64,000 bases of DNA from Deltaproteobacteria bacterium (GTDB lineage Bacteria; Myxococcota_A; Polyangia; Fen-1088). This document shows, one piece after another, positions 13,994 to 40,773 of this stretch (the first letter of the stretch is position 1; every line of letters starts with the position of its first letter). The stretch is taken from positions 239,015 to 303,014 of the forward strand of contig JANRKS010000031.1 in assembly GCA_033763315.1 (NCBI GenBank), written 5' to 3'. The notes under the pieces were generated by a model. It saw nothing but the letters and a program-made list of their open reading frames with translations. It was not told the DNA's origin and made no database searches. Position numbers and translations under genes: made by a program.

Positions 13994-14474
13994 GTCAATG
14001 CTTAACGAAATCAGGGTTTTGTCGAAGATGTCGGTCGCCGACCTGCGCCTTCGGCATGTCGAACTATTCGGCGAGGAATCACGCAGCCGCAACCGAGACT
14101 ACCTCTGGAAACGCATTGCCTGGCGTATTCAAGAAGTCGCCGAAGGCGGCCTCGACGAGCGAGTGAAAGCAAAAGCCAGGGAACTGGCGCGCGACCCTGA
14201 TTTGCGGGTCACGCAGCCTCGCCCATTGAGGGGAGTAACGGTGGTCGACACGACCAAGGGCACCAACCTCAAAGACGAGCGACTACCGGAGCCTGGCACG
14301 ACTTTGCAGCGAGAGTTTCGCGGCCGTACGTACTCGGTAGCTGTACTGCCGGACGGCTTCGAATACGAAGGCGAGCGCTTCAAGTCATTATCTGCCGTTG
14401 CGCGCATGATTACCGGGACCCGCTGGAACGGCCTCGCGTTCTTCGGAATCGCCGGTGCCAAGGAGCCTGCCTAA
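13986..14474 (+). CDS. DUF2924 domain protein
   Basis: RIAWRIQE..EGGL, PGTTLQREFRG, FEYEGERFKSLSAVARMITGTRWNGLAFFG. Confidence 0.92.
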   Translation: MSESMLNEIRVLSKMSVADLRLRHVELFGEESRSRNRDYLWKRIAWRIQEVAEGGLDERVKAKARELARDPDLRVTQPRPLRGVTVVDTTKGTNLKDERLPEPGTTLQREFRGRTYSVAVLPDGFEYEGERFKSLSAVARMITGTRWNGLAFFGIAGAKEPA

Positions 14475-16075
14475 TGGCATCGAAGGCTTTAGTCACAACG
14501 CCCGCGCGGCGTGTGTGCGCCATTTACACGCGCAAGTCCACTGAGGAGGGACTCGACCAAGAATTCAATACGCTCGACGCCCAGCGCGAAGCGGGCGAGG
14601 CGTACGTACAAAGCCAAAGGACTGAAGGTTGGGAAGTCTCCCCGACTCGCTACGACGATGGCGGTTATACGGGCGCCAACACGGACCGCCCAGCGCTACA
14701 AAGGCTACTAGCCGACATCCAGCGCGGAATGGTGGATGTAGTTGTGGTCTACAAGATCGACCGGCTTTCACGCAGCTTGCTCGATTTCGCGAAGCTCATA
14801 GAGGTGTTCGACAAGAACAAGGTCTCATTGGTGGCCGTCACGCAGCAGTTCAACACGTCGACCTCGCTTGGGCGCCTGGTGCTCAACATCCTGCTGTCCT
14901 TCGCTCAATTCGAGCGTGAAATGATAGCTGAACGCACCCGCGATAAGATGCGTGCGGCCCGACGTAAGGGCAAGTGGATAGGCGGCACGATGCCGTTCGG
15001 TTACGACGTCAAAGACAAGAAGCTCGTCATCAACGACGAAGAGACGCAGAAGGTTAAAGCGCTCTTCGACATGTATCTTGAGCATCATTCGGTCCTGAAG
15101 CTCGTCGAGCACGCCAATGGCCTTGGTTGGCGCGCGAAGAGCTGGACGACGAAAAAAGGCATCGAGCATCACGGAGGGACCTGGACAAAAAGCATGATGG
15201 GGCGGCTACTTCGTAACCCGCTTTATATGGGCAAGGTCTCGATCGACGGCGAACTCTTCGACGGCGAGCACGAGGCAATCGTCGACGAAACGAAGTTCAC
15301 GCGGGTGGCGGCGCAGCTCGACGCTGGCCGCAATGGCAGGGACGTGGTGGCCAGGAACCTGCACGGGTTTATGCTGCGGGGCTTGGTTCGCTGCGTAACC
15401 TGCAAAAGCGCCATGATTTCATCGACCGGGCGCTCGAAGGGCAAGGACTATCGCTATTACACGTGCCTCTCCGTCAGGCAAAAGGGCACGGGCGCTTGCT
15501 CGGTGAGAAGCGTGCCTGCCCAAGCGCTCGAGGATTTCGTTGTCGAACGCATACGCGATGTCGCCAAGGCTCCCTCGCTCATCACTGAGACGGTTGCTGC
15601 GGTCGCGGCTGAACGGATGGCCGCGCTGCCTGCGCTGTCTACGGAGCGCAAGCACCTTGAACATGAACGAGCCACCGTTCGGACAGAGGCGCGCAGCCTC
15701 GTCAGCCGACTCGCCAAGGCTGAAGTCAGCGCAGCGACATCGATTACGGAGCGGCTCGCGGAACTCGACCTAAGAACGGCGCAAATCGATGCACGCATTG
15801 CCGAAGTCGTAAGCCAGATTGCAGCTGCCCACGAAGGTGAGATTGCGCCCGAGACCATCGAGCAAGCGTTGAGCGCCTTTGATGAGGTTTGGGATGCACT
15901 TACCGTAAACGAGCGCGGCCGAGTCATTCGCCTCGTTGCCGAACGCATCGACTTCGACGGAATGGCGGGCACCTTATCGATCGCATATTCGCCGACGGGG
16001 CTCGCGCTCTTGCACGAGGAATCGAACAAACCCACCCACACGGGCAAACGTGGCCGTAAGGAGAAAGCAGCATGA
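14474..16075 (+). CDS. Large serine recombinase (resolvase, recombinase and Zn-ribbon domains)
   Basis: CAIYTRKS catalytic Ser, YDDGGYTG..DRPAL, YKIDRLSRS, FAQFEREMIAER, CxxC...YYTC..C. Confidence 0.96.
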   Translation: MASKALVTTPARRVCAIYTRKSTEEGLDQEFNTLDAQREAGEAYVQSQRTEGWEVSPTRYDDGGYTGANTDRPALQRLLADIQRGMVDVVVVYKIDRLSRSLLDFAKLIEVFDKNKVSLVAVTQQFNTSTSLGRLVLNILLSFAQFEREMIAERTRDKMRAARRKGKWIGGTMPFGYDVKDKKLVINDEETQKVKALFDMYLEHHSVLKLVEHANGLGWRAKSWTTKKGIEHHGGTWTKSMMGRLLRNPLYMGKVSIDGELFDGEHEAIVDETKFTRVAAQLDAGRNGRDVVARNLHGFMLRGLVRCVTCKSAMISSTGRSKGKDYRYYTCLSVRQKGTGACSVRSVPAQALEDFVVERIRDVAKAPSLITETVAAVAAERMAALPALSTERKHLEHERATVRTEARSLVSRLAKAEVSAATSITERLAELDLRTAQIDARIAEVVSQIAAAHEGEIAPETIEQALSAFDEVWDALTVNERGRVIRLVAERIDFDGMAGTLSIAYSPTGLALLHEESNKPTHTGKRGRKEKAA

Positions 16076-16776: not shown

Positions 16777-17463
16777 TCACGAGTCAGAAAGAGTCTGGGG
16801 ATCTTGATCGTCAGCGTCTAAATCAGGCACCGCAATGGCGGGTGGGCTTGTCCTCGGATCGCGTGGCGCGCCCTCCTTTTCGGCGGAACGCAGCGCTCGC
16901 TTTGCAATGGCAATCAAGATGGGAATGGACGCGGTCATAAGAGACGCCGTAGCGGGCTCACCCACAGAATCTCCCGCTAGGGCGGTACCCACGAGTTTAC
17001 CGAAGATACCGCGGCGCTTGACGTAAGCCGTGGCCCACCGTTGGGCGATCGCCAATTCGATCTGGTCGGGTTTCATGCTCCGCCGCCGCTGCCATGACAA
17101 GAGCCGCGCTCGGCGTGCAATGAGCTTGCGAAAGAAGGCGCGGAAGACTTTACGCCGTAGCGGCCCTGTGGCCGCCTTTAAGCCCCGCGCCGCGTATTTG
17201 GTAGTGGAAGCCGTCAAAGCCAAAGGATGCGCCCGTAGCGCCACACGCGACGCCCTCGATGCGAGAGCGCGGGACCCGCGCTTGGCCCTTTTTATGACAT
17301 TGAGGGCTCCTGCCACTTCCGCAGGACACAGATCGCAATGCTTAGCCGCCCTTTGCAGCGGAACCCCCTGAGCTAGGGCCGTGGAGAAGCCTTTGAGGTG
17401 GGCCCGATAGGCGTAAGGCGCCCCTATAAGCAAGTCGAAAAGGCGATCGTCACTCTTCGCCAT
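16777..17463 (-). CDS. Highly basic hypothetical protein, possible virion core protein
   Basis: SD AAGGAG before ATG 17463; Arg/Lys/Ala-rich. Confidence 0.7.
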   Translation of the reverse strand: MAKSDDRLFDLLIGAPYAYRAHLKGFSTALAQGVPLQRAAKHCDLCPAEVAGALNVIKRAKRGSRALASRASRVALRAHPLALTASTTKYAARGLKAATGPLRRKVFRAFFRKLIARRARLLSWQRRRSMKPDQIELAIAQRWATAYVKRRGIFGKLVGTALAGDSVGEPATASLMTASIPILIAIAKRALRSAEKEGAPRDPRTSPPAIAVPDLDADDQDPQTLSDS

Positions 17464-18133
17464 CGTTCGCTCCTTGCAAAGCGTCTGCTGGCTTCCCATC
17501 CTCGGCGTGTTGCCCATTCCCAGCCTGTTCAGGTTTGGCTTGCTGGACAGGTGCGGAAACCGGCGCAGGGTTCTTGCGAGGCTGCACAGGCCGGAACTTG
17601 CCGGTTGCCGGATCGAGCACCTGGCCGAATTCGAGCGAATCGACGCGGCCTTCCTCGAAACGGGCGTCGAGCGCACTACAAAGAGCTGGCATCAAGTCGT
17701 CGACTTGACGAACCTGGCGGCCGAGTACCGTCGCAAGCTGACCAAGCACACGCGGCGGCACAAGGAGGCTGCGGCGCATCTCGTCGTATTCGGCGCGCAA
17801 TTGCCAGATTGTGCGCGGCGACTTCTTGGTCGTCATGACGACCTTGGGCAAACTCTTCTTTGCCTCGAAAAGAGCGAATACGGTGGCGGCGGTTTCGTCA
17901 TCCGGATCGCCATTTGCACTGGAGCGCTCGGTAAGACCAGCTCTTTGCAAGAGTACCGCGCGCACTTCGTCGGACCTATACTGCCAAACGCGGCTGCTCG
18001 TGCGCGTGGGGTGAAGTTGGTGGCCGTCCATCATGGCCACTTCCTCATCCGAGACGCCGAGAAGGCTCGCGACTTGCGCTCTCGCGAGCCGTCCTTTGGC
18101 CCCGTGGTCTGTTGACTTCGCCGTTTTATTCAT
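17450..18133 (-). CDS. MerR/excisionase-like HTH DNA-binding protein
   Basis: LARAQVASLLGVS...LHP....VWQYRSDEV; SD GGAGGAG. Confidence 0.7.
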   Translation of the reverse strand: MNKTAKSTDHGAKGRLARAQVASLLGVSDEEVAMMDGHQLHPTRTSSRVWQYRSDEVRAVLLQRAGLTERSSANGDPDDETAATVFALFEAKKSLPKVVMTTKKSPRTIWQLRAEYDEMRRSLLVPPRVLGQLATVLGRQVRQVDDLMPALCSALDARFEEGRVDSLEFGQVLDPATGKFRPVQPRKNPAPVSAPVQQAKPEQAGNGQHAEDGKPADALQGANDGEE

Positions 18134-23746: not shown

Positions 23747-24118
23747 ATGACCGATAAGGAGTTGTCCGAATTTGGCGGCAAGCTTTATGAAGCCGTGTTG
23801 TTCACGCCGCTTCCAGCCGCCACGGTCTTCAGCTTGGCGCTCGCCGTTCGGCAAGCCATTCCGTGGGCGCACCTACCGCAGCATCTAAAGTTCGCGGTGT
23901 TCAAGATTGCCGCCAGTTGCACAGGCGAAGTGGTGGCCGATGCGCCGTCGCACGCGGCGAGCGACGCTGCGCCAGAGAGTCACACAAGTTCAGGCGCCGT
24001 GGTGGACCACGTGCCGCTCCGCGACGATGTGGATGTCGAGCCAAGCGTCAGCGCCGAACAAGTTGGCGCCTCGCTGCCTGGCACATCAGCAGGAGATGGC
24101 GAAGCGTCAGCGGCCTAA
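23747..24118 (+). CDS. Hypothetical protein
   Basis: SD AGGAGG; alternative ATG at 23741. Confidence 0.65.
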   Translation: MTDKELSEFGGKLYEAVLFTPLPAATVFSLALAVRQAIPWAHLPQHLKFAVFKIAASCTGEVVADAPSHAASDAAPESHTSSGAVVDHVPLRDDVDVEPSVSAEQVGASLPGTSAGDGEASAA

Positions 24119-24171
24119 GGCCGCGAGGGGTTGGAAAAGTTCGTTTCACGCCTTGGGAAGGGGATAAAGAC

Positions 24172-24702
24172 ATGGCACTCGATTCATTGACACGGACACC
24201 GTCAGGAGGGCTCGAACAAAGCCGCCGCGCGCCTTCGGTGCTCGAACGCTTGGCAGCGGGGCAAAACCGGTTCTTGCGGCTAAGCGGGCGACCGTCGGGA
24301 ACAGGGCAAAACAACGAGGGGCTGATGCACAGGCTCAAAGCCGCCGGCATCGCGCAAGCCGAATCGGGCGCCGTGTCGCTCGCGCTTGGGTATCTCGCCG
24401 CGCGCTCCCCAGAACACTTGCGTGTGGGGCCGCTGCCGCTTGAGTTCCTGATGGGTGTGGGCAGCCACGCGGTAGCGCTCATCGCCTCGCCCGAGGCCGC
24501 TGTCCATCTGCACTCGGTAGGCACAGGGGCCATCGATTCCTTTTTGAATTCGCTTGGCCGAGGCTTTGGCCGGCGGGCTCGTAAGGCGGCCGGGCTACCG
24601 CCGCCAGCAGAAACATTCTTGGCTGGCGACGACGGTGCCGAGACATCGGGGGGCGGCGCGCTTTCGGACGAAGAGCTCGCAAGTCTTGCAAGGCGAATCT
24701 GA
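24172..24702 (+). CDS. Gly/Ala-rich putative virion membrane protein
   Basis: Weakly hydrophobic helices, acidic tail; directly upstream of the capsid candidate. Confidence 0.65.
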   Translation: MALDSLTRTPSGGLEQSRRAPSVLERLAAGQNRFLRLSGRPSGTGQNNEGLMHRLKAAGIAQAESGAVSLALGYLAARSPEHLRVGPLPLEFLMGVGSHAVALIASPEAAVHLHSVGTGAIDSFLNSLGRGFGRRARKAAGLPPPAETFLAGDDGAETSGGGALSDEELASLARRI

Positions 24703-24798
24703 CGAATTTTGTGAAATGCCCGCGCAGCGCGCGGCATAGAGCAGCGCGGTCGAGGGTCGAAGGGTTTGTGGAATTTCAATTGTGGGGAGGACACGCAA

Positions 24799-25473
24799 AT
24801 GCACACGGACATCATGGGTGACGATTTTCTCGGCGACGACTTGGGCGACGATTTGGAGGGCGAAGAGCTCGGCGAAGACGAACTCGGCGACGACATCATG
24901 GGTGACGACATCATGGGCGATGAACTCGTCGGCGTAGACGACATCCTTGGTGACGACATCATGGGCGACTACTTGGTGGGTGCTCAAGCGGCGCGACGCC
25001 GAAGACTTCGCCAGGCACGGCCAGCCGTTTCAGCCGCCGCGGCGGCGAATGCGAAGAAGGCTCTCATGCGCAAGGCGATTTTGGCCAAGCGCTTGCGAAA
25101 CGCGGCCATCGTCCACAAGCGTGGTCCAAGCAAAAGCCGTGTGCAGCCACTCGGCTTTAGCCGCGAGGCGATTGCGCCTGGTGATACGACCGAAATTACG
25201 GCACGGCCACAGGTGCTGTTTCGTGGCCGCCGTTTGCTGGTGGGGTCGACGATCGCGGGCAGTTTCACCATTGAAGACATCAAGGTGGGCCGCAACAGCC
25301 AATTCGTAGGCACGGGCCCGCAACCGGCGGAAGCGTTCCGCGACACGGCAACTGGCGACAATATCTCGCTCGATACGTGCAAGCCTGGCGTCGACATCAG
25401 CATCACGGTCCGCAACATCACGGGTGCGGCGGCGGACTTTCGCGCGACACTGTTCGGCGACGTGGTCGAGTAG
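24799..25473 (+). CDS. Candidate single-jelly-roll major capsid protein with acidic repeat propeptide and basic linker
   Basis: SD GGAGGA; C-terminal ~112 aa of alternating beta-strands (QPLGF..TEITARPQVLFRGRRLLV..FTIEDIKVG..ISITVRN..FRATLFG). The fold is inferred. Confidence 0.6.
   Translation: MHTDIMGDDFLGDDLGDDLEGEELGEDELGDDIMGDDIMGDELVGVDDILGDDIMGDYLVGAQAARRRRLRQARPAVSAAAAANAKKALMRKAILAKRLRNAAIVHKRGPSKSRVQPLGFSREAIAPGDTTEITARPQVLFRGRRLLVGSTIAGSFTIEDIKVGRNSQFVGTGPQPAEAFRDTATGDNISLDTCKPGVDISITVRNITGAAADFRATLFGDVVE
24808..24981 (+). repeat. 12 tandem Gly-terminated acidic peptide units (DDIMG-like; 12-18 bp)
   Basis: DIMG DDFLG DDLG DDLEG EELG EDELG DDIMG DDIMG DELVG VDDILG DDIMG DYLVG; gacatcatggg occurs four times. 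Confidence 0.92.
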
Positions 25474-25712
25474 GGCGAGCAGCCGAGAAGCGATTTCAAA
25501 CGGGCGGCGGGTAGGGGAGGGAAGAACGCGCGCGCGTTCACAAGAAGAGCCGCGCAGTGGACGCGGCCATCAGCTGCGACGGCGGCTGCAAGGGGGGAGA
25601 GGGCGGCGGCGTGGAGTGTCGAGGCAGTGGCGGCGGGAGAAGCGGGGCCCGAGGCGTCGATAGCCGAAGCATGGCGAAGGCGCCTCGGGCCAGGCGGGAA
25701 GAAGGTGCACCG

Positions 25713-26198
25713 ATGATGCAACCAGTGGTCTTCAAGGTTCAGTTGTTTAAAGACGCAGACGATCGGCCTCGCTCGCAGGAAGCGCTGCTGTGGATGCTCG
25801 AAGCGCTTTGTAAGATCAACGACGGCCATCTCGCCGAGCGGCCTTACCCACCGCTTTACGAATCGGGTGTGCGGTACCAACGGGAACTCGGCACCGAAGA
25901 GTGGCTCGACATTCCGTCAATCATTCAAGCGGGGTGGGGCGACTGCGAAGATTTGGCGTGTTGGCGTGTCGCGGAACTCCGCCGGCAGGGGCAGCACGCG
26001 GGACCTTATGTGCGGTACCGAAGCCTCGACGGCGTTTTTCATTACCACGCGCTCGTCATGCGCTATCGGCGTGTGCTTCGACCCGGTCCTAGGGGTCGCT
26101 TGGTGGAAAGCTTCGTGCCCGACCATATCGAAGATCCGTCGAAGAAATTGGGCATGGGCTCGGCCGCCGATGCCATCCAAAGGGAGCTCGAATCGTGA
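25713..26198 (+). CDS. Transglutaminase-like cysteine protease
   Basis: GDCEDLACWR (Cys), YHALV (His), EDPS (Asp) triad order. Confidence 0.8.
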   Translation: MMQPVVFKVQLFKDADDRPRSQEALLWMLEALCKINDGHLAERPYPPLYESGVRYQRELGTEEWLDIPSIIQAGWGDCEDLACWRVAELRRQGQHAGPYVRYRSLDGVFHYHALVMRYRRVLRPGPRGRLVESFVPDHIEDPSKKLGMGSAADAIQRELES

Positions 26199-26911
26199 TT
26201 CTCTTTGCCGGCATCGCCCTTGCCATCGTGCTCTTGGCCCTTTTTCGCAAAGGCGCGAGCAACGAGGAGATTGTCTCGAGGCTTAGCAAGCAAACAGATC
26301 CGCGCGTCGTCGCCATTGCGGCGAAGCTCTTGTCGGAGCGGGGCATGAGACTCACGGCCGAGGTGCTCGAAGCGCGCGCAAAGCGACTGGCTGCGGGCAA
26401 CAATGCGGTAAGCGGTGATGAAGGTGCATCGACACTGCGCTCGCCGTTTTTGGCGGCGTCAGATGGAGCGTGGACCAATTTTGTGCGGCTACTGGTGCAA
26501 AGCGATCCGCACGCAAGGTCTTCGCGAGGAAGGCTCGGTCGTTTCGATATTCATCTACGCCGGCTCGAAGAAATCGGGTGGGTGACTGGGGTTCGCTTCA
26601 ACGAAGAAGGGGTGGCACAGGCCAAGTGGGTGCCACCCATGAGCGAAGAGCGCTTCCTAGCCGATGCATGGGCGCAATACCGGGCGCTCGTAGCGACGCT
26701 CAAGCTTTGTCGCCGTCAACTCGTGGGTTGTGGCGTCGACGCGGCCACGGGAGCGCCGGTCAAGGATTCAGGGCCCACATTGTCGGGTGTCTTGGCGGTG
26801 GCCCATCGATTGGGGGCGGAGGGCGCAGTCAAGTGGCTGCGCTCGCCGCTCGAGCGGGCTCGGCAGCCGGTGGCAACGGCGCTGTTTAGGAGCGCGAACG
26901 GACTTTTCTAG
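26195..26911 (+). CDS. N-terminally anchored protein with lysozyme-like domain
   Basis: N-terminal TM; GRLGRF..L..IG, FLAD..AQ, TLSGVLAVAHRLG..G..KWL. Confidence 0.55.
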   Translation: MILFAGIALAIVLLALFRKGASNEEIVSRLSKQTDPRVVAIAAKLLSERGMRLTAEVLEARAKRLAAGNNAVSGDEGASTLRSPFLAASDGAWTNFVRLLVQSDPHARSSRGRLGRFDIHLRRLEEIGWVTGVRFNEEGVAQAKWVPPMSEERFLADAWAQYRALVATLKLCRRQLVGCGVDAATGAPVKDSGPTLSGVLAVAHRLGAEGAVKWLRSPLERARQPVATALFRSANGLF

Positions 26912-26922: not shown

Positions 26923-28254
26923 ATGCACATCCAAGGCGACATAAAGATTTGGTCTGACGGACACAAAGTGTGCGCTCGACTCGAGGCCGATGGCCCCGAG
27001 GGTCCCATCGTCATTCAAGCCTCTGCACCGATAGGTCCCGTGAGACGCAAAATGGCCCGCGTGTTCGCTCGCCAAGGCGTCACTGTGTCGGGCGCGGACC
27101 CCGCGTTTGCCGCCAAGGTGCAACAAGTGGCGAGGCGCAAAGCGCTCAAGCGTCTACAGCGCATGGCCCCGGGAGCGTTTCGCAAAGGCGGGCTCGGTCC
27201 CTACCTTGCGCAACAAGAGCTGCTCAAGCGCAAGAAGCGTCGACGCGCGTTGGCTGGGGCCGGGCGACCGGTGGGGGCAAAGCCCGTGGGACCACTGCCA
27301 GCCAAGAAGACTCGACCCGCCCCGCAAAACTGGCGCGCACGAATGCGCGCGACGGCACGTGGGCCGGCCGGAGGGCCGCGCGCTCTTTTGCCTGCGACAC
27401 CGAAGAAGGTGGCTGCGCTCATGGCGCCTTCGTCGCTGCTCGTGCGCCCGTCAATACCGCGGCCCATACCGTCGCGCAGCCCTGGAGGTGGACGTGGTGG
27501 CGGTAGTGCCCACGGCTCATCGTCGGATAGGCCTGGGGCCGCTGCGCGTGAAGAGGACGGACTCGATGCGGCAAGCGAAGCCAGGGACGAACAAAGTCAA
27601 GCGCCGACCGGGCAAGATGAGGAATACGCCGAAGGTGAAGCCGATGCTGGACAAGACGCTGGGGACGGCGGCGAAGGTGACGAAGCCGACGCCGAAGATG
27701 AAGAAAGCGAAGGCTCCGATGAAGGTGCGGAGCAAGAAGGCGAAAGCGACGGCGTAAGCGGTTACGGTTTTCGCGGCAGGCGTCAACGCTTCGATGAGCG
27801 ACGCCAATTGCAGGCCCGGCGCAACATCGCGATCAAACGACTACGCGCAGCCATGAGGCTCTTGTTGGCGGCGTACCACGATCCAGATGCACGCCAGCGC
27901 ATCGTCGATATCGCAGCCATGGCTGGCGAAGGACATCCCGGCGCGAAGAAGAGCTTCAAGGCTTTGGCGGTGGCTCACAAGCTGCACAAGAAGGCACAGG
28001 TCCGATCGGCCACTAAGGCGCTCGCGCCGCGACGACCCGTTTACGGCAAAGCTTTAGCTACAAGCAAGGCCAAGCCGCAAAACAAGGCTCTCATAGCCAC
28101 GATAACGAAGGCGACTGCGTCGCGAGCATCATCCACGACGAACGCAAAACCAAAAGCGCTCACGGCACCATCGCCACCCTTTACACCGGGTACGCCCGCG
28201 GACGCCGTGAGGTGGTGGGACATCCTGGCGGCTTGGCGACGCGGCATGGGTTGA
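26923..28254 (+). CDS. Low-complexity basic/acidic/basic protein, candidate core or scaffold protein
   Basis: SD GGAGGA; Arg/Lys-rich blocks flank an Asp/Glu block of about 70 aa. Confidence 0.75.
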   Translation: MHIQGDIKIWSDGHKVCARLEADGPEGPIVIQASAPIGPVRRKMARVFARQGVTVSGADPAFAAKVQQVARRKALKRLQRMAPGAFRKGGLGPYLAQQELLKRKKRRRALAGAGRPVGAKPVGPLPAKKTRPAPQNWRARMRATARGPAGGPRALLPATPKKVAALMAPSSLLVRPSIPRPIPSRSPGGGRGGGSAHGSSSDRPGAAAREEDGLDAASEARDEQSQAPTGQDEEYAEGEADAGQDAGDGGEGDEADAEDEESEGSDEGAEQEGESDGVSGYGFRGRRQRFDERRQLQARRNIAIKRLRAAMRLLLAAYHDPDARQRIVDIAAMAGEGHPGAKKSFKALAVAHKLHKKAQVRSATKALAPRRPVYGKALATSKAKPQNKALIATITKATASRASSTTNAKPKALTAPSPPFTPGTPADAVRWWDILAAWRRGMG

Positions 28255-28323: not shown

Positions 28324-28614
28324 ATGATGGCAAAGCTCGACGAAGTGGAACAAACGGCGATCGATTTCATCAGGGGTGCAGGCCGCTATGGCGTGTATCT
28401 GACGCACTTGGGGCTCGAGGTCGCCGGTGTGGCCGATTGGCTCGAGAACCAAGTTCCACGACTGCGACGCGCATTTGGCCTCATCGCCACGGTGGCCACG
28501 ACGGAATGCGTTCGGGCAGCCGAAGAGTTTCGTGACGTCCATGGCGGGCCGAGTCGCCCACCGAGGGACGAAGAACACCGCCGCAATCACAACGCGTCCG
28601 CCCGGGAAATGTAG
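28324..28614 (+). CDS. Hypothetical protein
   Basis: SD GGAGG; lies within the operon. Confidence 0.55.
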   Translation: MMAKLDEVEQTAIDFIRGAGRYGVYLTHLGLEVAGVADWLENQVPRLRRAFGLIATVATTECVRAAEEFRDVHGGPSRPPRDEEHRRNHNASAREM

Positions 28615-28636
28615 CGACGTTGCCGAGGAGACGACC

Positions 28637-29362
28637 ATGGCAGTGAACGGCACCACGAACTCGCCTTACGAGCCTATCTTCGCCAAGTATGCGGGCGCGA
28701 TTCCGCAGGCGTATTTGCGAACGCTCGCCTACAAGGAAAGCAGCTTCAAAGCTGACGTGGTTCATCCGCAAAGCAATGCCACAGGGCTCTTTCAGATCAC
28801 TAGCATCTGTCTGCAGGGTTTCAACAAGGCCAAGGGTACGGCGTTGAAGCTCGCGCAGCTAAAGGATCCGAATCTCAACACGATTGTGGCTGTCTATCAT
28901 CTCGGCCATGTCATAGGCGTGTACGCCCAAGTCCGATCGCTAAAGCCCGATTGGACGAGCCGCCGTTGGCTCGAACTCCTTACGCTCGGTTGGAATGCGG
29001 GCCACAACGCCATCATCGGCCTTGCAAAACAAATGGAAGCGTCAGGCCTACCGCCCGAGCGCATCACCGTCGATTCCGCAAGCCAGCTCGCGCGAGCGAC
29101 AGGCAAGGGCAAATACGTCGCCGAACCAGATCGCGTGGCTTGGTCGAAAAGCGTGGCAACCATGTTTTTGGGCGGTGGAATCATCCCCACGGGCAAGTCG
29201 CGACTGCGGCAACTGGCGTCGATGTTGCCGGCTCTGCCGGCGGCCAAAGGCGGCGGCATTGCGGTCGCTTTCGCGCTCGCAGCCGCTGGTGCCGCACTGA
29301 TTTTGAAGAAGAAGGAGGCAAGCGATGACTTCACGGGAAGAGCAGCTTATGCCCGCACCTGA
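28637..29362 (+). CDS. Lytic transglycosylase (SLT) with C-terminal membrane anchor
   Basis: AYKESSF, ATGLFQI, LKDP..N, WNAG; hydrophobic tail followed by KKK. Confidence 0.88.
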   Translation: MAVNGTTNSPYEPIFAKYAGAIPQAYLRTLAYKESSFKADVVHPQSNATGLFQITSICLQGFNKAKGTALKLAQLKDPNLNTIVAVYHLGHVIGVYAQVRSLKPDWTSRRWLELLTLGWNAGHNAIIGLAKQMEASGLPPERITVDSASQLARATGKGKYVAEPDRVAWSKSVATMFLGGGIIPTGKSRLRQLASMLPALPAAKGGGIAVAFALAAAGAALILKKKEASDDFTGRAAYART

Positions 29363-30440: not shown

Positions 30441-30653
30441 ATGGACAAGGTGGACAAGCTTGCCTACGAGATAGAGGCGATGGTCGATCGCAACAGCATG
30501 GCGCGCGTGCTCGATTTACTCGCCATCATGTGCGCCATGAAGGCCGACCACATTCATTCGAATTGGGGCGATCGGAATCTCGCGAAAGCCTGGACGCAAC
30601 TTGCGGAAAAAGTCGCGAAGGCGTGTGCATTCGCGGAACAACAGCAGCTCTAA
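30441..30653 (+). CDS. Small hypothetical protein
   Basis: SD GGAGG; lies within the operon. Confidence 0.6.
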   Translation: MDKVDKLAYEIEAMVDRNSMARVLDLLAIMCAMKADHIHSNWGDRNLAKAWTQLAEKVAKACAFAEQQQL

Positions 30654-30690
30654 GCTACCGGCAACCAGACGCACGGGCAAGGAGCAAGCG

Positions 30691-31428
30691 ATGAAAGTCG
30701 GCAAGGATGGCTGGTTGCAAGCCGAGCCGGGCGGCGCCAAAGTCGTAAAGCTTCCCACGGTACGCCTAGTGAAGCTTTCAGTGCCCGCACCCATCGCGCT
30801 CGTATGGCATGCAACGGGTGGCGTGGGTGGTCCGCGGTTCGCTGAAGGATTGGCCCGTCGAATTCAAACCTACAAGCGCGGTATAGACCGTCCTGCGTCC
30901 TGGCACATCGTCATCGCCGCGGATACGGGTGACGTCTTCCAAAGCGCGCCTTTGAGCATAGGCACGTGGCACGTAGGACGCCCCGGCACCATCGATGGGG
31001 TTCATCACCCGTACATCAATCGCGTCACCCTCGGCGTCGAGCTCGAAAACGCCGGCAGCCTCATCAAAGTCGGCGATGCGTTTTACGCTTATCCATATTG
31101 GCTCAATCGCGAAAAGCGGCTTCCGCATCCCGGGTGTCGTCTGCCCAAAGAGCGCGTCCGTTACCACGAAGGTCGTGCTTACGATCGGTTCAGCGATGCG
31201 CAAGCCGACACTGCACGCGAGCTCGTCGCTGCGCTTTCAGAGCATTTTGGCTGGCAGCCCAACGCTTTTGGTTACGCGCACGCCGACTTCGGGGCGCCAG
31301 AGAAGACCGACCCGGGACCCTTATGGATGAAGGCTCGCTTGCCTTCGGTCCTTTGCAACGTCTTTACGGGTGACGGGCCCACGGTCGTCACGGGACCACC
31401 GGTGTTTGACGAAAGGCCCTCTTCATGA
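30691..31428 (+). CDS. N-acetylmuramoyl-L-alanine amidase (Amidase_2), endolysin
   Basis: LVWHATG, ASWH, WHVG, N..TLGVELEN, HAD...KTDPG. Confidence 0.9.
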   Translation: MKVGKDGWLQAEPGGAKVVKLPTVRLVKLSVPAPIALVWHATGGVGGPRFAEGLARRIQTYKRGIDRPASWHIVIAADTGDVFQSAPLSIGTWHVGRPGTIDGVHHPYINRVTLGVELENAGSLIKVGDAFYAYPYWLNREKRLPHPGCRLPKERVRYHEGRAYDRFSDAQADTARELVAALSEHFGWQPNAFGYAHADFGAPEKTDPGPLWMKARLPSVLCNVFTGDGPTVVTGPPVFDERPSS

Positions 31429-31908: not shown

Positions 31909-32979
31909 ATGCCAAATACCTTCATTACACTCGATGTGCCTAACGTCGCCAATGGCGCGGGCGTGCCGACGCTCGTCGGAGGCACGGGGCATCCCAAAAG
32001 CTTTGTGCTCACCGGTGCTCTTACGGGCCGCTATATCGTCGAAGGCAGCAACGACGGGGGGACGACCTGGGACATCCTCAAAGATGATAACGATGGAACC
32101 GAAGCGCTGTTTACTTCGCAGAATGCCGGCACCAAAAGCGTCGACTGTATCGTCGAACGTGTGCGCGTCCGTGTGGCGCGGGCATTGCCGACGTCCACGC
32201 CACCTTCGGTAACGATGGGCGCCCCGCCTGCGCTGGGCTTCAACTTCTTTGGCAGGTTGGATGTCCCCGACGCCGCCGGCACGGGCGCAGTGCTCGATTT
32301 GGGCCTCAATGTCGGCCCGCTCAAGACGTTCGTATTGCGCGGCATGGTACCTGAGCGAGCGCGCTTTACGATTCAGGCGTCGATGGATGGGGCGCGTTTC
32401 GATGAAGCGATGCTGTTTACTTCAGATCAGCAAGGCGCACGTTCCGTGCACGTCATGTGCCGTTATCTTCGCGTGCAACGCACGGGTGGCTCAGGCCCGG
32501 CTCCCGCCATCAGCGTGGGCTGCGAGCCCGTCTTCGAGCCTGCTGGCAGTGAAAGCGGCGGCATTGCGCCATCAGGCCCATACGTCTCGTTTGGCGACGA
32601 GTCCGTCAAATCCACGACAGGCATCTATGACGAAGAAGTCATCGAAGAGTTTTTGGCACCTCCTACGAGTGTAACGGGTGCAGCCGAAAAAGTGGTGGCG
32701 TGGTTTTCGGGGTTGGGGCGCAAAGGCAGCCCCGAGGGTGGAGCCGTGACGTTTCGGTTGCGCATGGGAGGAACGCCTGGTGTGGCCGACGGCGAAGTCT
32801 TGGCGACGGCGCAAGTCTCAACGTTAGAGCGATCGCCCTGCGTGGCGAGAAGCGAACCCTTCGTTCGCTCGGCACCCACGCTCATCAAGGTGACCGGTCG
32901 GGGAAATGGCGAAGCGGCAGCGGTGCTTGGCGGTCTCGTCGTCTCCATCGAGCCCGCACCTGGGCCGAGCGGGACGTGA
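31909..32979 (+). CDS. Beta-rich three-domain protein, candidate spike/vertex protein
   Basis: Two tandem domains (LDVP..K[ST]FVL.G..S[NM]DG..SV..RV) plus a C-terminal domain shared with 33036-33626. Confidence 0.65.
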   Translation: MPNTFITLDVPNVANGAGVPTLVGGTGHPKSFVLTGALTGRYIVEGSNDGGTTWDILKDDNDGTEALFTSQNAGTKSVDCIVERVRVRVARALPTSTPPSVTMGAPPALGFNFFGRLDVPDAAGTGAVLDLGLNVGPLKTFVLRGMVPERARFTIQASMDGARFDEAMLFTSDQQGARSVHVMCRYLRVQRTGGSGPAPAISVGCEPVFEPAGSESGGIAPSGPYVSFGDESVKSTTGIYDEEVIEEFLAPPTSVTGAAEKVVAWFSGLGRKGSPEGGAVTFRLRMGGTPGVADGEVLATAQVSTLERSPCVARSEPFVRSAPTLIKVTGRGNGEAAAVLGGLVVSIEPAPGPSGT

Positions 32980-33035
32980 CGTGACGAGATGAATTTCTTG
33001 TGACTGGGCTGGAAAACAAAAGGGGAGGAGCGGAC

Positions 33036-33626
33036 ATGGCAAAAGACATCGCACAACGGGAACTCGATCAAGCAGGCTTTCGCATCGGCAACCTCGGCAA
33101 TCCAATCGCCGCAGGAGACGCCACCAAGACCGACAACCAATCTGTGCCGAAGGCAAACGCTGGCAACGGCTCCGCGGGCACGAGCTTCTTGGCAGCAGCG
33201 GCAGATCACGTGCATCCAGCGGGAGGCGACGCGGGAGGCGCAGATGGCTGCGGCTTCATCGACGTGTCGGACCCGAGTTGCCAAGCGGTCAAAGGGAAGA
33301 CCGAGGAGATTGTGGCTGAGTTCAACGTGGATTTTGGCGGCCTCAAGTCGCCGCAGATGTTGGTGAGCTTTTGCGCCATCGCGAAAGCCGCTGGCGGCAC
33401 CGCGACTTTGAAAGTGAGACTCGGAGGCACTGTGGGCCTGCCGGACGGCAACGTCATCGCCACGGCAACGACCAACGGCGGCACGTTTTCGCCCGTACAG
33501 GGCCAACAGCCCGCGGACAACCCAGGGCAGCCGTCGCTCGTGAAGATCACCGCGGTCACGGATTCAGACGGTGGTGAAGCGTTCCTATATGGCAAGACAG
33601 TAGAGTTTAGAAAGGCGGCCGCGTAG
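33036..33626 (+). CDS. Fibre/spike-like protein
   Basis: LD..G.RIGNLG.P...DAT neck-like motif, ADHVH fibre motif, beta C-domain. Confidence 0.65.
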   Translation: MAKDIAQRELDQAGFRIGNLGNPIAAGDATKTDNQSVPKANAGNGSAGTSFLAAAADHVHPAGGDAGGADGCGFIDVSDPSCQAVKGKTEEIVAEFNVDFGGLKSPQMLVSFCAIAKAAGGTATLKVRLGGTVGLPDGNVIATATTNGGTFSPVQGQQPADNPGQPSLVKITAVTDSDGGEAFLYGKTVEFRKAAA

Positions 33627-33628
33627 TC

Positions 33629-34123
33629 ATGTCCGTACGCGACGTCTTACGAAAGCCGCTCGATGCCGGCGGTCACGTGCTCGGCAATCTCGGTACACCC
33701 GAGACGTCCCGAGATGCAACGTTCACGGACTTGGCTAGTAAACCCAAACCGGTTGCACTTGAGCCTGCACCGGGAACGAGCTTGCTTGCGGCGCCAGCCG
33801 ACCACGTGCATTCGAGCCCCACGCCCATGCGCATCCCCGTGGCGGGTTTTGGCATCGTGGGTCCTGGGGCGCGGGTGACGCTCGCCACGTTCAAGCGCCT
33901 CGATGGGGAGTTGTTCATGCCGGGTGGCTTCGCATTTATCCGGGACGACATCGACGGGGTCACTTGGGAGAACGAAGTCGATGGCGGCACGAACATCTCC
34001 ACCTATCACGAACGCACCGCCACCCCGAACGAGCTGCGTTTTCGGCTTCACAACGCGAGCAACAAGTCGTTGACGGTCGAATACGCGACAGTGGGCTTAT
34101 CGCTGCCCCGGCAAAACGCGTGA
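33629..34123 (+). CDS. Fibre/spike-like protein, N-terminal paralog of 33036-33626
   Basis: LDAGGHVLGNLGTP...DAT and ADHVH motifs; different C-domain. Confidence 0.65.
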   Translation: MSVRDVLRKPLDAGGHVLGNLGTPETSRDATFTDLASKPKPVALEPAPGTSLLAAPADHVHSSPTPMRIPVAGFGIVGPGARVTLATFKRLDGELFMPGGFAFIRDDIDGVTWENEVDGGTNISTYHERTATPNELRFRLHNASNKSLTVEYATVGLSLPRQNA

Positions 34124-36457: not shown

Positions 36458-37255
36458 ATGGGTCGCCCAACGCGTGTCGAAGGAATCTTTGCGGACGAAG
36501 AGCTGCCCATCGTTCATCCCGATAGAACGATTGGCGATAGCGCCGAACTCGTGCCCGGCAATGCTCCGGGAGATCGAGGACCGGTCAAGGAGATCCTTCG
36601 CACGCGTGGCGGTGACGCCCGCGCTCAGCTTCTCACGGTCACCGTCGTAGGCTCTGGTGTATACGAATCAGATCTGCGAGGAGCATCGCTTGCGCCTCGT
36701 GGGCCTCTCGTGGGCCTCATCGAATGGGGGGTGGGGGGAGCCAAATCGAAGGCGGAGTTCGACATCCCGTTGGGCGGTGTCGTGTTTTCGGTCGTCGCGA
36801 GCTACGTGCATATCGCGGCTCGTTATGACGGGCTTGTGCTCGTCAACGGCTTGCAACTGGATCCGGTTGCAGTCGGAGGCGCCACGCCAGGCCCTAAACA
36901 ACGCGTGGGAGCCATGGTCGGGTACGGCTCCTATGGCGCGACAGGGAAGCTTACGCGAACGATTCGCGTGCCCAGTCTTACAGCCGAGACCGCCGAAGGC
37001 CTCAACATCAGCGATAGGGTCCGTATTCCGCCCTTTGCGCGGCGAATGTCGGTGCTGGGGCTGCAACTTGATCTCACGAGCTACCGCATTCGCTTCGGTA
37101 CGTTTAGAGATCCGCACGACGGCGATGTGCTGGTGCCGCTTGGGCAACCGCCGCAAGCCATCGAGCTGCCCGGGGACGGAACCTTCGTCGAAGTTGAGAA
37201 CCTCGGCCCGACGGTGCTCAGAAATCCCACGTTCGTCTTTGAACTGAAGGTGTGA
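36458..37255 (+). CDS. Beta-rich protein, candidate minor capsid/penton
   Basis: Alternating beta-strand pattern throughout (QLLTVTVV, GLIEWGVGG..AEFDI, SVVASYVHIAARY). Confidence 0.55.
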   Translation: MGRPTRVEGIFADEELPIVHPDRTIGDSAELVPGNAPGDRGPVKEILRTRGGDARAQLLTVTVVGSGVYESDLRGASLAPRGPLVGLIEWGVGGAKSKAEFDIPLGGVVFSVVASYVHIAARYDGLVLVNGLQLDPVAVGGATPGPKQRVGAMVGYGSYGATGKLTRTIRVPSLTAETAEGLNISDRVRIPPFARRMSVLGLQLDLTSYRIRFGTFRDPHDGDVLVPLGQPPQAIELPGDGTFVEVENLGPTVLRNPTFVFELKV

Positions 37256-37270
37256 AAGGGGAGGGGAGCT

Positions 37271-37471
37271 ATGACGGACACAAATCTCTTGCTAGTCGAG
37301 GAAGTGGCTTCCATCTGCCGCACGAGCCCAAGCACCGTGCGCTTTTGGATCAAGACCGGCAGACTGAAAAGCGTTCGTCCCGGACACCGCCTACTCGTGG
37401 CTGCGGCGGAATTGCACAGATTTCTCGGCTTCCGGGCGGGTCGGAAGAAGCGTCTGAACAAGAGTCGCTGA
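37271..37471 (+). CDS. Excisionase-like HTH_17 protein
   Basis: LLLVEEVASICRTSPSTVRFWIKTGRLKSVRPG. Confidence 0.85.
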   Translation: MTDTNLLLVEEVASICRTSPSTVRFWIKTGRLKSVRPGHRLLVAAAELHRFLGFRAGRKKRLNKSR

Positions 37472-37482
37472 AACGGACTTTC

Positions 37483-39342
37483 ATGAATCGTGGGTGGCCA
37501 TACGACGTCGATGATGGGGCGCCGCTGACCGTGGCACCGGGGCCCGACGACGGGGCAATCGACGCGGGCTATGCCATACGCGATGGCTGCACGGTTCGGA
37601 TCGACGTCGACCGCAATGGCGATGAACGCGTCGATGTACTGGCCACTTTTGTGGCCCGCATCGAAGAGGAAATTACCATTGACGATGGCGTCGACACCTC
37701 ACGTATCTTTCGCATCTCCTGTCGTCTCAAAGACGGCACAAGGGTCAAAGACGCTCTCGTGCCCGCGTTGGAATTTGAGGGCTTGTCGTGGGTACTTCGC
37801 AACTGGGGTTTGCGCGCGTTGGTGTTTTCGGGGGGAGGGCGGCGCGACCACTTGCGCACGGCCATCCAGTTGATGTCTTGCACCGCCGGACGGCGAACCG
37901 TCTACACGCACACCGGATGGCGGCAAGAAGGCGACGAATGGATCTACCTCTATCAGGGCGGCGCGGTGGGCATCGAAGGCGTCGAAGTGCGCCTAGATGG
38001 GGCGTTCGAGCGTTTTGCGTTGCCCGCACAGACATTGGAGGTTGAACGCGCAATTGCCGCCTCGTTGAGCTTGCTCGATTGTGGCCCCTCGGAAGTGACC
38101 GTGCCGCTTTTGGCAGCCACGTACGCCGCGCCGTTGTCGTTCATTCTGAATCCAGACTTCGCGGTTTGGGTCGTGGGGCTCACTGGGAGCCTCAAGAGTG
38201 AGCTTGCTTCGTTGGCTCAAAGGCATTTTGGACCGTTTACGCGTAAGACCCTGCCGGGGAGCTGGTCATCGACGTCCAACTCCCTCGAATCTCTGCTTTC
38301 GGTGACGAAGGACATGTTGGCAGTCATCGACGATTTTGCCCCTCAAGCGGACGGGCAGACACAGCGTGAGCAGACCAAACGCGCCGAAGTCATCCTTCGC
38401 AACGTCGGCAACCATGCCGGGCGCGGGCGCCTCAAGCCCGATCTGACTCAACGGCCGGTGCGCCCACCGCGAGCACTTGTCTTGTGTACGGGCGAAGATC
38501 ATCCGCCAACTCCCTCCATCGTAGCTCGGCTTGTGCTCGTGCAGGTGGATAGAACAAAGCTCGATTTTGCGGCTGTGTCGCGGACGCAAGCCGAAGGCGA
38601 GCGTCTCCCCCACGCCATGCGTGCTTACGTTGAATGGCTGCGCCCGCGCATTGTCGCGCTTAAAGAATCGCTCCCGCGTGAACTTGCTGAGCTGATGACC
38701 ACGACGTTTTCATCCGCCACGCTTGGCGGCCACATGCGGGCCCCGAGCGGTCTTGCCACGTTGTATCTGGGACTGCGCACGTTTGCCGAGTTTGCTGTCG
38801 ACAATGGGGTGCTCGAAGGAATGCAGGCTCTAAAGCTCCTTGAGGAGGCGAAGGTGGCACTTATCGCCATCGGCAAACGGCAAGCCGCCCTCGGCGACCC
38901 TGAGGGCACCTCGAATGCTCGAACTGATGCCCACACCGAGTCGCCGAGCCAAAGGTTTATTACGGCTCTTCGGGAACTGTTGGCGGCTGGGCGCGTGTGG
39001 CTTGGGTCGAGCGAAGGCTTGCATGCCTGCGGACCGTCGACCGCTTTCGTCGGTTGGTGCAAGGGCGAGGTCGTTCATTTTTTGCCAGAGCCCGCCCATC
39101 GGGCCGTGACTTCGTATCTGCGTGAATGCCGCCGTCCGTTGGTGCTTTCGTGTTCAAAGCTGGTGGAACTGCTCGTGGCTGAAGGCTTGGTGCTCGACTC
39201 GGACACGGCTCACGGTTTTCTCCAGCAAGTAAATGCCGAACGACGCGTCCTCGTGTTGCCGGCCAAGTTGATCTTGCCTGAGAAGGGGGGGGCAAAACCG
39301 CGGCTGTCGATCGTCGCTTCGCCTCAAAGGTTACCGCGATAG
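37483..39342 (+). CDS. DUF927-like replication helicase/ATPase
   Basis: YTHTGW, Walker A GLTGSLKS, SWSST.N.LE, Walker B AVIDD, GRGR, TGE. Confidence 0.8.
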   Translation: MNRGWPYDVDDGAPLTVAPGPDDGAIDAGYAIRDGCTVRIDVDRNGDERVDVLATFVARIEEEITIDDGVDTSRIFRISCRLKDGTRVKDALVPALEFEGLSWVLRNWGLRALVFSGGGRRDHLRTAIQLMSCTAGRRTVYTHTGWRQEGDEWIYLYQGGAVGIEGVEVRLDGAFERFALPAQTLEVERAIAASLSLLDCGPSEVTVPLLAATYAAPLSFILNPDFAVWVVGLTGSLKSELASLAQRHFGPFTRKTLPGSWSSTSNSLESLLSVTKDMLAVIDDFAPQADGQTQREQTKRAEVILRNVGNHAGRGRLKPDLTQRPVRPPRALVLCTGEDHPPTPSIVARLVLVQVDRTKLDFAAVSRTQAEGERLPHAMRAYVEWLRPRIVALKESLPRELAELMTTTFSSATLGGHMRAPSGLATLYLGLRTFAEFAVDNGVLEGMQALKLLEEAKVALIAIGKRQAALGDPEGTSNARTDAHTESPSQRFITALRELLAAGRVWLGSSEGLHACGPSTAFVGWCKGEVVHFLPEPAHRAVTSYLRECRRPLVLSCSKLVELLVAEGLVLDSDTAHGFLQQVNAERRVLVLPAKLILPEKGGAKPRLSIVASPQRLPR

Positions 39343-40555: not shown

Positions 40556-40773
40556 GAAATTGCGGCGTGATCCCCCGTTCGGATTCGCCCTGATGGTGCC
40601 ACCCTGCGCCGTGACACGCAAAGCGCGGGAACGCTGGGGCCTTTGGGGCAAACAGTGGCGAAAGAGCGCTTTGTTTGTCTTCCGACTGGACTGTTCAGAG
40701 AAGTGGAGCGACGAATCGTCCAAGGGCGATGGGCGAGGGGAAGGCGAAGTCAGCACCACAACGGAGAACATCC

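Follow-up and report, generated by a model that had tools for sequence, protein, structure and literature searches.

Genes A and B are neighbouring forward-strand genes in a 64,000-nucleotide stretch of the genome of a Deltaproteobacteria bacterium (assembly GCA_033763315.1, contig JANRKS010000031.1, positions 239,015 to 303,014; hereafter the window), where they appear to form a linked pair among the structural and lysis genes of a temperate element of Myxococcota that is unclassified and probably tailless. We propose, with a probability of roughly 40%, that A is a virion structural precursor carrying a charge-balancing acidic pro-region and that B, as a cysteine protease with a transglutaminase fold, removes this pro-region. 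The anatomy of A, the catalytic triad of B, the linkage of the two genes, the co-variation of charges across the A family and the junction motif were established in this analysis. In the proposed mechanism, A would serve as a capsid or nucleocapsid subunit that combines a jelly-roll-like domain with an arm that binds or condenses DNA. It would be made as a precursor in which acidic, glycine-punctuated repeats neutralize the arm, either as an intramolecular mask or as a DNA mimic, and the mask would prevent A from binding nucleic acid and from coming out of solution before assembly. B would cut A at the hydrophobic-hydrophobic-Gly(-Ala) junction, and possibly also at the internal repeats so that the pro-region is reduced to short peptides, and the freed arm would bind the DNA of the element during assembly.

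The 224-residue product of gene A has the three parts ascribed to it in the original prediction, which was made from the sequence alone: twelve acidic units ending in glycine, an arm rich in arginine and lysine, and a beta domain. Residues 1-61 parse into exactly twelve units of 4-7 residues, every one of which closes on glycine (MHTDIMG, DDFLG, DDLG, DDLEG, EELG, EDELG, DDIMG, DDIMG, DELVG, VDDILG, DDIMG and DYLVG). This region contains 24 Asp or Glu and no Lys or Arg (charge -24), the arm at residues 62-112 contains 16 Lys or Arg and no Asp or Glu (charge +16), and residues 113-224 are near neutral with 12 Lys or Arg against 13 Asp or Glu. The regularity of the glycine spacing was reached by none of 200000 shuffles of residues 1-61, and the number of glycines preceded by a hydrophobic residue by 246 of 200000. 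Eight of the twelve units end in hydrophobic-hydrophobic-Gly, a pattern that replaces the hydrophobic-x-Gly cleavage motif first suggested. The underlying DNA repeats are old and have diverged, with Tandem Repeats Finder reporting a period of 15 (5.2 copies, 71% matches) and a period of 12 (2.1 copies). In an AlphaFold2 model built with 34 homologues, residues 1-64 have a predicted local distance difference test score (pLDDT) below 50 and no confident structure, the arm forms helices at residues 63-72 and 74-101, and the beta-sandwich that begins at residue 113 reaches a pLDDT of ~86-96 in most 10-residue blocks, with a single block at 73. No terminator-like site was found on the plus strand between A and B, where the RNA fold z-score of -1.72 is unremarkable, and the G+C content of third codon positions gave no discrimination as a guide to gene calling at 60% GC.

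A word-indexed search identified 75 relatives of A, all of them unnamed or 'hypothetical' and one of them from a metagenome-assembled genome (MAG) of the Kofleriaceae. A profile built from 39 relatives was searched against 1.84 billion cluster representatives (50% identity clusters) and matched 4565 at E <= 0.001, 2597 at E <= 1e-10 and 449 at E <= 1e-30. Members are mostly 160-250 residues in length, and the beta domain is the conserved core of the family. A itself has no match in Pfam, PHROGs or NCBIfam; no PHROGs family was found for 142 of 143 distant homologues, and the remaining one matches a family of unknown function (E 1.7e-4) across its repeat region. Searches with tblastn against 50,697 GenBank phage records gave no match for A or for the distant homologues P0262 and P0207, and the names of 10 A-family clusters held nothing besides 'hypothetical protein'. 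A profile search of PDB sequences with A returned nothing significant, the best values (E 2.4 and 3.3) being compositional.

The layout of charges recurs across this family. Among 197 full-length members, 148 contain a strongly basic stretch; the region preceding it is net negative in 146 of these, with a median charge of -17, and the last glycine lies 1-5 residues ahead of the first Lys or Arg in 118. Hydrophobic-hydrophobic-Gly units range from 0 to 15 per sequence (median 5), so that the repeat number does vary among homologues, a point that the original prediction had raised. In 126 non-redundant representatives with one beta domain, a sample that is not phylogenetically independent, the counts of acidic and basic residues in the N-terminal extension are correlated with a Spearman coefficient of 0.90, and with r of 0.83 after length is removed. 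The extension keeps a slightly negative net charge (median -3), which is below zero in 104 of the 126 representatives. As read from these sequences, this co-variation is the strongest new evidence for an acidic region that would offset the arm, and it lends substance to the part of the original prediction in which the repeats mask a basic DNA-binding segment.

The boundary between the two charged regions also shows a recurrent pattern. In those representatives at 50% identity whose basic stretch lies no more than 6 residues past the last glycine (n=66), the junction consensus is [D/E]-[D/Y/A]-[L/I]-[V/L/I/M]-G-A-R-R-R, and alanine follows the junction glycine in 35. Inside the acidic region, the residue after glycine is Asp in 144 of 360 units and Ala in 88. 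Three fused forms (P0263, P0265 and P0291) carry the glycine repeats, the GA junction and the arginine arm internally, after an N-terminal part of 200-250 residues, which is the placement expected of a cleavable linker.

The open reading frame (ORF) listed for gene B opens at GTG 25557; all homologues align from the residues MMQP, and the likely start is therefore ATG 25713. The relatives of B number at least 1000. Across 26 aligned members, residues G76, D77, C78, E79, D80, W84, R85, H112, D141, P142 and S143 are invariant, and these include the Cys-His-Asp triad that had been noticed in the gene after A; the codon then named for the catalytic cysteine does encode Cys78. The family profile PF01841 (Transglut_core) is matched by 16 of the 26 aligned members at E <= 1, with a best value of 3.2e-6, and is annotated on 2 of the 120 B matches listed in a precomputed table. 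The structural model of B has a pLDDT of 91.4 and a predicted template modelling score (pTM) of 0.85; in it Cys78 opens a helix spanning residues 78-91, and the order Cys, His, Asp is that of the transglutaminase-like superfamily. Foldseek places B near several proteases, namely LapG, TgpA, vasohibins and a Cytophaga cysteine protease (3isr), although the matches are weak (E 0.05-0.84, template modelling (TM) scores 0.24-0.37); further weak neighbours are the pseudomurein isopeptidases PeiP and PeiW, TglA and the bacterial transglutaminase (TGase) 4xz7. In a PDB-sequence profile search, GDCED of B aligns with GDCEDYA of LapG (4u65_E) at E 0.5. Taken together, the triad, the PF01841 matches in the family and the weak fold neighbours suggest that B is a minimal, diverged transglutaminase-like Cys-His-Asp enzyme, a description that fits a protease and a cross-linker alike.

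B has no PHROGs or NCBIfam match and no tblastn match in the 50,697 phage records. Intein or LAGLIDADG domains occur in 12 of 98 longer B homologues (P0360, P0367, P0371, P0376, P0377, P0382, P0392 and P0399 among them). In all eight sequences inspected the intein is placed exactly at GWGD|C, and the catalytic cysteine is the first residue past it. Inteins typically sit in the active site of an enzyme that a mobile element cannot do without, and an intein at the catalytic cysteine thus argues that B matters to the elements that carry it. A prediction of the A+B complex, run without controls, scored 0.00 (mark 0.32) and speaks neither for nor against binding.

A is followed by B in four of four loci: the window, a contig of a Kofleriaceae MAG (L001; A 78% and B 82% identical to the window proteins), a contig of a Myxococcales MAG (L002; A 58%, B 77%) and the plasmid pSa001 of the cultured Sandaracinus amylolyticus MSr10575 (L004; A 34%, B 40%). 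Both genes are single-copy in the first three. Gene order is conserved in L001 and L002 from gene P, which lies directly upstream of A, to the second of two holin-like genes, with the exception of 26195-26911, which is unmatched in L002. In L002, host metabolic genes extend up to ~7.6 kb and the element opens with a helix-turn-helix (HTH) gene, followed by P, A and B. The A-like protein of pSa001 keeps the layout of acidic glycine units followed by VLAASVGA-ARRRR, and its B-like gene is duplicated in tandem, the first copy being without the cysteine. The block on this plasmid (L004 17280-26963) opens with a winged-HTH regulator, a 177-aa protein, the A-like and B-like genes and a peptidoglycan-binding protein, and continues with three unknowns, an M23 endopeptidase, a coiled-coil protein, an LRAT/NlpC-like protein and one more unknown. 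Thirteen A and B matches agree in the size of the longest contig listed, which is only a proxy for co-occurrence. The accessible portion of the preprint on pSa001 does not mention phage genes.

The proposed pairing resembles known systems in part. The viral cysteine proteases adenain, poxvirus I7L and pS273R of African swine fever virus trim structural or core precursors at Gly-containing sites, and adenovirus pVII is a basic DNA-condensing protein made with a pro-segment. In proteases of this type (clan CE) the catalytic His comes before the Cys; B instead has Cys78 first, then His112 and Asp141, on a transglutaminase-like core, and no Pfam model of those families matches it. The likeness to adenovirus and poxvirus drawn in the original prediction would thus hold for function and fails for the order of the catalytic residues. 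The adenain-type systems also differ from A and B in their eukaryotic hosts and double jelly-roll capsid proteins, and to our knowledge an acidic Gly-repeat pro-region whose charge matches that of an arm occurs in none of them. Virion maturation by a cysteine protease of this kind extends to the virophage mavirus, the subject of PMC6048507.

A second likeness is to the proteases that remove leader peptides. PMC10885120 describes transglutaminase-like C96 proteases (McjB, lasso B2) that remove lasso-peptide leaders and papain-type C39 proteases that cut after GG, GA or GS, and hydrophobic residues lie ahead of the C39 cleavage sites (PMC10885120; 10.1101/2022.04.06.487251). The A/B pair would share with these a small cysteine protease and an N-terminal leader, and its junction has the form hydrophobic-hydrophobic-G-A. 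Leu would occupy position -4 if A were cut after Ala62, while the -7 (Gly) and -12 hydrophobic positions of C39 leaders are unmatched. Unlike the substrates of leader proteases for RiPPs (peptides made by the ribosome and then post-translationally modified), A is a folded protein of 224 residues, and the pair has no transporter and no recognition-element partner. B has no C39 domain and no sequence match to the C39 or C96 families; the resemblance is in working only.

Among transglutaminase-like enzymes, the bacterial transglutaminase-like cysteine proteinases (BTLCPs), represented by LapG (Peptidase C93), resemble B in the GDCED sequence around the catalytic cysteine, and LapG is among the best structural neighbours (E 0.05-0.24). 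LapG is a calcium-dependent periplasmic protease that cuts a giant adhesin at a di-alanine site. The LapG profile PF06035 matched one of 28 longer B homologues, with E 0.0052 and a score of 17 bits where the cut-off is 27, and membership of B in this group was rejected on this sub-threshold profile match, the sequence E-value of 0.5 given above and the lack of an export signal. In its reference list, PMC10318531 has BTLCP and vasohibin papers among the transglutaminase-like references, with adenovirus and vaccinia I7L proteases elsewhere in the list.

On the capsid side, the single jelly-roll capsid proteins of the tailless, membrane-containing viruses P23-77 of Thermus (VP16/VP17) and HCIV-1, of the Sulfolobus virus SPV1 (VP4) and of small RNA or ssDNA viruses with Arg-rich N-terminal arms, such as cowpea chlorotic mottle virus (CCMV), resemble the modelled A in having an 8-stranded beta-sandwich after a basic arm, and an Arg-rich arm beside a jelly-roll domain is typical of capsid proteins. 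The weak viral Foldseek matches of A in the PDB include CCMV (E 8.9e-3) and HCIV-1 6h9c_K (E 2e-2); scores just as good come from non-viral proteins, namely Ena pili (E 2.6e-3), the furin P domain and nucleoplasmin-like domains. Against predicted viral structures, four matches pass E 0.001, all unnamed, followed by SPV1 VP4 (E 4.5e-3) and by coat proteins of plant viruses and of circular Rep-encoding single-stranded DNA (CRESS) viruses at 2e-3 to 5e-3. The three ESM Atlas clusters nearest to A, with a score of 0.95, are unnamed and 80-95% labelled viral, the label being a default-type Uroviricota assignment. Kinship of A with the P23-77 capsid proteins was rejected on hhalign probabilities of 1.2% (VP16) and 0.1% (VP17). 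The element resembles P23-77 in carrying an amidase and a transglycosylase, and a gene block of P23-77 type was rejected because the element has no packaging ATPase and no second capsid-protein paralogue; no paralogue of A was found in the window, L001 or L002. A tailed phage (Caudoviricetes) was likewise rejected, with no terminase, portal or HK97-fold capsid among the scanned ORFs of at least 150 aa.

Several observations weigh against the proposal that A is a virion precursor matured by B. The virion role of A, DNA binding, proteolysis and the cleavage site are all inferred. No hallmark virion gene was recognised, which makes the viral nature of the element itself a matter of interpretation. 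By the criterion used, 49 of the 197 A members lack the strongly basic stretch, and the close junction described above occurs in only 66 of 144 representatives at 50% identity; on these sequences the junction motif is not universal in the family. A permanent, uncleaved balance of charges explains the co-variation equally well, and the co-variation, drawn from related representatives, is by itself no demonstration that the pro-region is removed, which was the other half of the original masking claim. Homologues with 2-4 tandem beta domains exist (P0196, P0204, P0226, P0251 and P0334; P0197, P0211, P0221 and P0304); those with two domains begin right at the beta domain, and in several with three or four a transmembrane-like N-terminus replaces the acidic and basic extension. 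Given such forms, the beta domain is not tied to one role. For B, the window's own protein has no Pfam match even at E 10, Foldseek gave no PDB match at E <= 0.001 and only TM-scores below 0.5, and the transglutaminase-like fold also covers cross-linkers and cell-wall isopeptidases such as PeiP and PeiW. For A, Foldseek likewise returned no PDB match at E <= 0.001 and TM-scores all below 0.5, so that A stays, as in the original prediction, a capsid candidate. The pSa001 copy of the block is plasmid-borne, and the gene table for it, which is incomplete, lists no integrase within 20 kb. Finally, a conserved 265-aa protein of the element (36458-37255) may be the true capsid protein instead of A.

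Two alternatives to this proposal deserve separate discussion, and both are unlikely in our estimate. In the first, B belongs to the entry or lysis machinery as an enzyme that hydrolyses the cell envelope, for instance an endo-isopeptidase of peptidoglycan or pseudomurein type, or it acts on some substrate other than A; the acidic region of A then stays in place until DNA or partner subunits displace it from the arm. In favour of this, the fold of B is also that of the phage-type isopeptidases PeiP and PeiW, wall enzymes are always present in the block (an SLT transglycosylase and an amidase in the window; the peptidoglycan-binding, M23 and LRAT/NlpC-like proteins on pSa001), and the matching of charges needs no cleavage. 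This alternative is at odds with the absence of a cell-wall-binding domain from all 28 longer B homologues scanned, with the lack of a hydrophobic N-terminal segment in B and with the position of B, which adjoins A and not the lysis genes in all four loci.

The second alternative, which we also consider improbable, concerns A. Here the block would build no virus particle and would instead encode a secreted, surface or predation apparatus, with A exported and B as its processor, or A would be a minor, core or spike component beside another capsid gene. The lack of a recognised virion hallmark and of a packaging ATPase fits such a reading, as do the transmembrane anchors and the 3-4 tandem copies in A-domain homologues, which resemble surface proteins, the plasmid location of one copy of the block, and the ESM Atlas neighbours of A past the first three, which are Ig-like or cell-wall-anchored proteins at TM 0.34-0.42. 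The 265-aa protein is a candidate for the product of such a separate capsid gene. In the window its gene sits between a methylase and a primase-helicase candidate, and its pSa001 counterpart (L004 22945-23622) lies within the A-B module. It has no PDB or PHROGs match and no tblastn match in the 50,697 phage records, and the idea that it is a tandem A domain was rejected, as hhalign gave a probability of 0.1% for a profile-level relation to A. A block that builds no particle is difficult to reconcile with the integrase, the amidase and holin-like lysis set and the candidate replication gene, all in a single orientation, or with the viral labels of the ESM Atlas clusters nearest to A. In addition, A has no signal peptide and carries the Arg arm and jelly-roll combination mentioned above, and PADLOC defence models matched neither A, nor B, nor their neighbours.

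A third alternative, in which B is a true transglutaminase that hardens the shell by Gln-Lys cross-linking of A or other particle proteins while the repeats act as an unremoved scaffold or charge balance, has parallels in the HK97 chainmail and the Bacillus spore-coat enzyme Tgl and can draw on the transglutaminase Cys-His-Asp core of B, on TGase 4xz7 and TglA among its weak neighbours, on the better conservation of B than of A between loci (77-82% vs 58-78%) and on two glutamines (Q138 and Q168) among the nine invariant columns of the A alignment with a lysine (K162) invariant among the 17 closest homologues, but we regard it as very unlikely, as it leaves the conserved Gly-Ala junction and the fused forms unexplained, the glutamines are perhaps merely structural, and most bacterial transglutaminase-like proteins are reportedly thought to be proteases, a view said to come from Makarova, Aravind and Koonin in 1999.

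The proposal that B matures A can be extended to a broader one, which we consider doubtful: that A and B are markers of a large lineage, so far undescribed, of bacterial viruses with double-stranded DNA that are temperate and tailless, with a shell or nucleocapsid made of a single jelly-roll protein carrying an Arg-rich arm, DNA condensed by charge without a packaging ATPase, and a charge-matched, Gly-punctuated acidic pro-region removed by a transglutaminase-fold cysteine protease. Its scope would be the Myxococcota described here and the 4565 metagenome clusters that match the A profile. We know of no cultured bacteriophage with a single jelly-roll and Arg-arm shell, with ATPase-free charge condensation or with protease maturation of this kind. 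Our literature search found no description of the A-B protein pair or of this type of element. The accessible part of a preprint on myxobacterial viruses (10.64898/2026.09.14.751636) deals with tailed phages only.

The element spans ~12.4-41.5 kb of the window (~29 kb), mostly on one strand, and the simplest reading, itself an inference, is a temperate, tailless virus-like element of an undescribed kind. Its first genes encode an HTH regulator and a DUF2924 protein; a large serine recombinase and a sigma-70-like protein come next, ahead of P, A and B (Table 1). After B come a membrane protein, a 443-aa charged protein, the SLT transglycosylase and a 357-aa protein with a C-terminal hydrophobic tail, and the order ends with the amidase, two holin-like paralogues, three module-sharing proteins, a DNA methylase, the 265-aa protein and a 696-aa protein. 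Homologues of P align from residue 104 of ORF 23863-24702, and P has no Pfam, PHROGs or NCBIfam match. Terminase, portal, HK97 capsid and tail genes were absent from Pfam and PHROGs scans of chosen ORFs of at least 150 aa at 12.4-41.5 kb, and NCBIfam found none of these tailed-phage hallmarks among 17 element proteins of no known family. No credible Walker A motif was present in any frame of the element, the two matches being unconvincing, and an ESM Atlas search with the 506-aa protein was uninformative.

Table 1. Coordinates of genes A and B, their parts and the other annotated features of the element (positions in the window)
Feature	Position	Strand	Basis or remark
Large serine recombinase, likely integrase	14474..16075	+	Resolvase, Recombinase, Zn_ribbon_recom; phrog_95 integrase E 9e-117
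Gene P, 176 aa, hydrophobic segments	24172..24702	+	First gene of conserved block; identity 74% L001, 42% L002
Shine-Dalgarno-like GGGGAGGA	24784..24791	+	8 nt 5' of gene A ATG (24799), from sequence
Gene A	24799..25473 (incl. stop)	+	224-aa structural-protein candidate
A residues 1-61, putative pro-region	24799..24981	+	12 acidic Gly-ended units
A residues 62-112, Arg/Lys-rich arm	24982..25134	+	Lys/Arg count; modelled helices 63-72, 74-101
A residues 113-224, beta-sandwich (jelly-roll-like) domain	25135..25470	+	AlphaFold2 model; conserved family core
Gene B	25713..26198 (incl. stop)	+	161-aa transglutaminase-like Cys-His-Asp enzyme
Cys78 codon TGC in GWGDCEDLACWR motif	25944..25946	+	Invariant 26/26; intein insertion point in homologues
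His112 codon CAC	26046..26048	+	Invariant 26/26
Asp141 codon GAT in EDPS motif	26133..26135	+	Invariant 26/26
238-aa protein, N-terminal transmembrane helix	26195..26911	+	Hydrophobic window at residue 1; 41% identity L001
443-aa protein, basic/acidic/basic segments	26923..28254	+	Conserved in L001 and L002; no family match
SLT lytic transglycosylase	28427..29362	+	PF01464 E 2.3e-11; hydrophobic window at residue 274 (C-terminal)
N-acetylmuramoyl-L-alanine amidase (endolysin-like)	30601..31428	+	PF01510 E 7e-14; PHROGs endolysin families
Holin-like paralogues, ~160 aa	31425-31907, 34542-35012	+	phrog_36209, E 5e-5 and 3e-4
356-aa protein, possible spike	31909..32979	+	Two similar internal segments; C-terminal part shared with 33000-33626 product
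265-aa conserved protein	36458..37255	+	Alternative capsid candidate; 32% identity over 177 aa to pSa001 gene, E 3e-17
696-aa protein, candidate primase-helicase	37252..39342	+	PF06048 (DUF927) E 3.2e-4, under Pfam cut-off; putative replication role

The 443-aa protein has a conserved N-terminal domain of 60 residues, a basic stretch, an acidic stretch of ~90 residues and a basic helical part ending in RWWDILAAWRRGMG, and its composition suggests that it may be a DNA-condensing or internal protein. A second A-like junction in this protein (GYGF-RGRR) is unconserved in L001 and L002 and was dropped. The holin-like paralogues flank three spike-like genes, whose products share modules: the C-terminal parts are common to 31909-32979 and 33000-33626, and the N-terminal ~60 residues to 33000-33626 and 33629-34123. 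On this pattern the three proteins (31909-34123, all +) may be spikes. The N-termini of the 33000 and 33629 products may resemble those of tail fibres, and the 356-aa protein has no tblastn match in the 50,697 phage records. A DUF2924 gene lies at each end of the element (13986-14474 and 40675-41475, both +), with the serine recombinase beside the left one only. In L001 the homologue of the right-end DUF2924 gene (448-1110) is found just upstream of the homologue of 16777-17676, and from this position the order of the element looks circularly permuted between genomes.

Outside the element, the window is bacterial chromosome. The left flank, to ~11 kb, contains a VgrG gene, immunity-protein domains, and FHA-GGDEF and HDOD genes; the VgrG-type spike gene (1345-3807, -; Phage_GPD, Gp5 trimerisation and OB domains) adjoins an Imm71/Imm72 protein (6166-7047). 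To the right, 42316-45140 (-) holds three consecutive ORFs, the last of which (42316-43272) has weak DNA polymerase III alpha matches at E 1.6e-6 and begins straight after the stop of 43273-44406 in the same frame, as an interrupted gene or two abutting genes would. From 45894 to 63748 (+) there follow helicase, methylase and restriction genes, a series of nucleic-acid enzymes of the sort typically seen in defence islands. Among them are a protein of 1153 aa that is RNase H-like plus SF1 helicase, a UvrD-like helicase carrying a PD-(D/E)XK nuclease, a methylase of N6/N4 type and a ResIII helicase-endonuclease of 1180 aa whose end is S24 peptidase-like; DUF5131, GMT-wHTH and NucS-like proteins come after these.

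The A/B pair is partly supported as a variant of the virion precursor with its cognate cysteine protease, drawn from two large families that no library names. If the proposed maturation is correct, it would constitute a fourth kind of maturation protease for bacterial viruses, the prohead proteases known to us being serine enzymes, and would represent a new way to handle a DNA-binding arm, by means of a built-in, charge-matched acidic mask. If it is wrong, the co-variation of charges and the intein at the catalytic cysteine are still signs that both families are functional and deserve names. A cultured carrier is known in Sandaracinus amylolyticus MSr10575, through pSa001, and the proposal can thus be tested at the bench. 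Both families are abundant in metagenomes (4565 clusters for A, at least 1000 for B) and absent from Pfam, PHROGs, NCBIfam and the 50,697 phage records, and they may provide a possible handle for a whole prophage-like group that virus finders label only by default.

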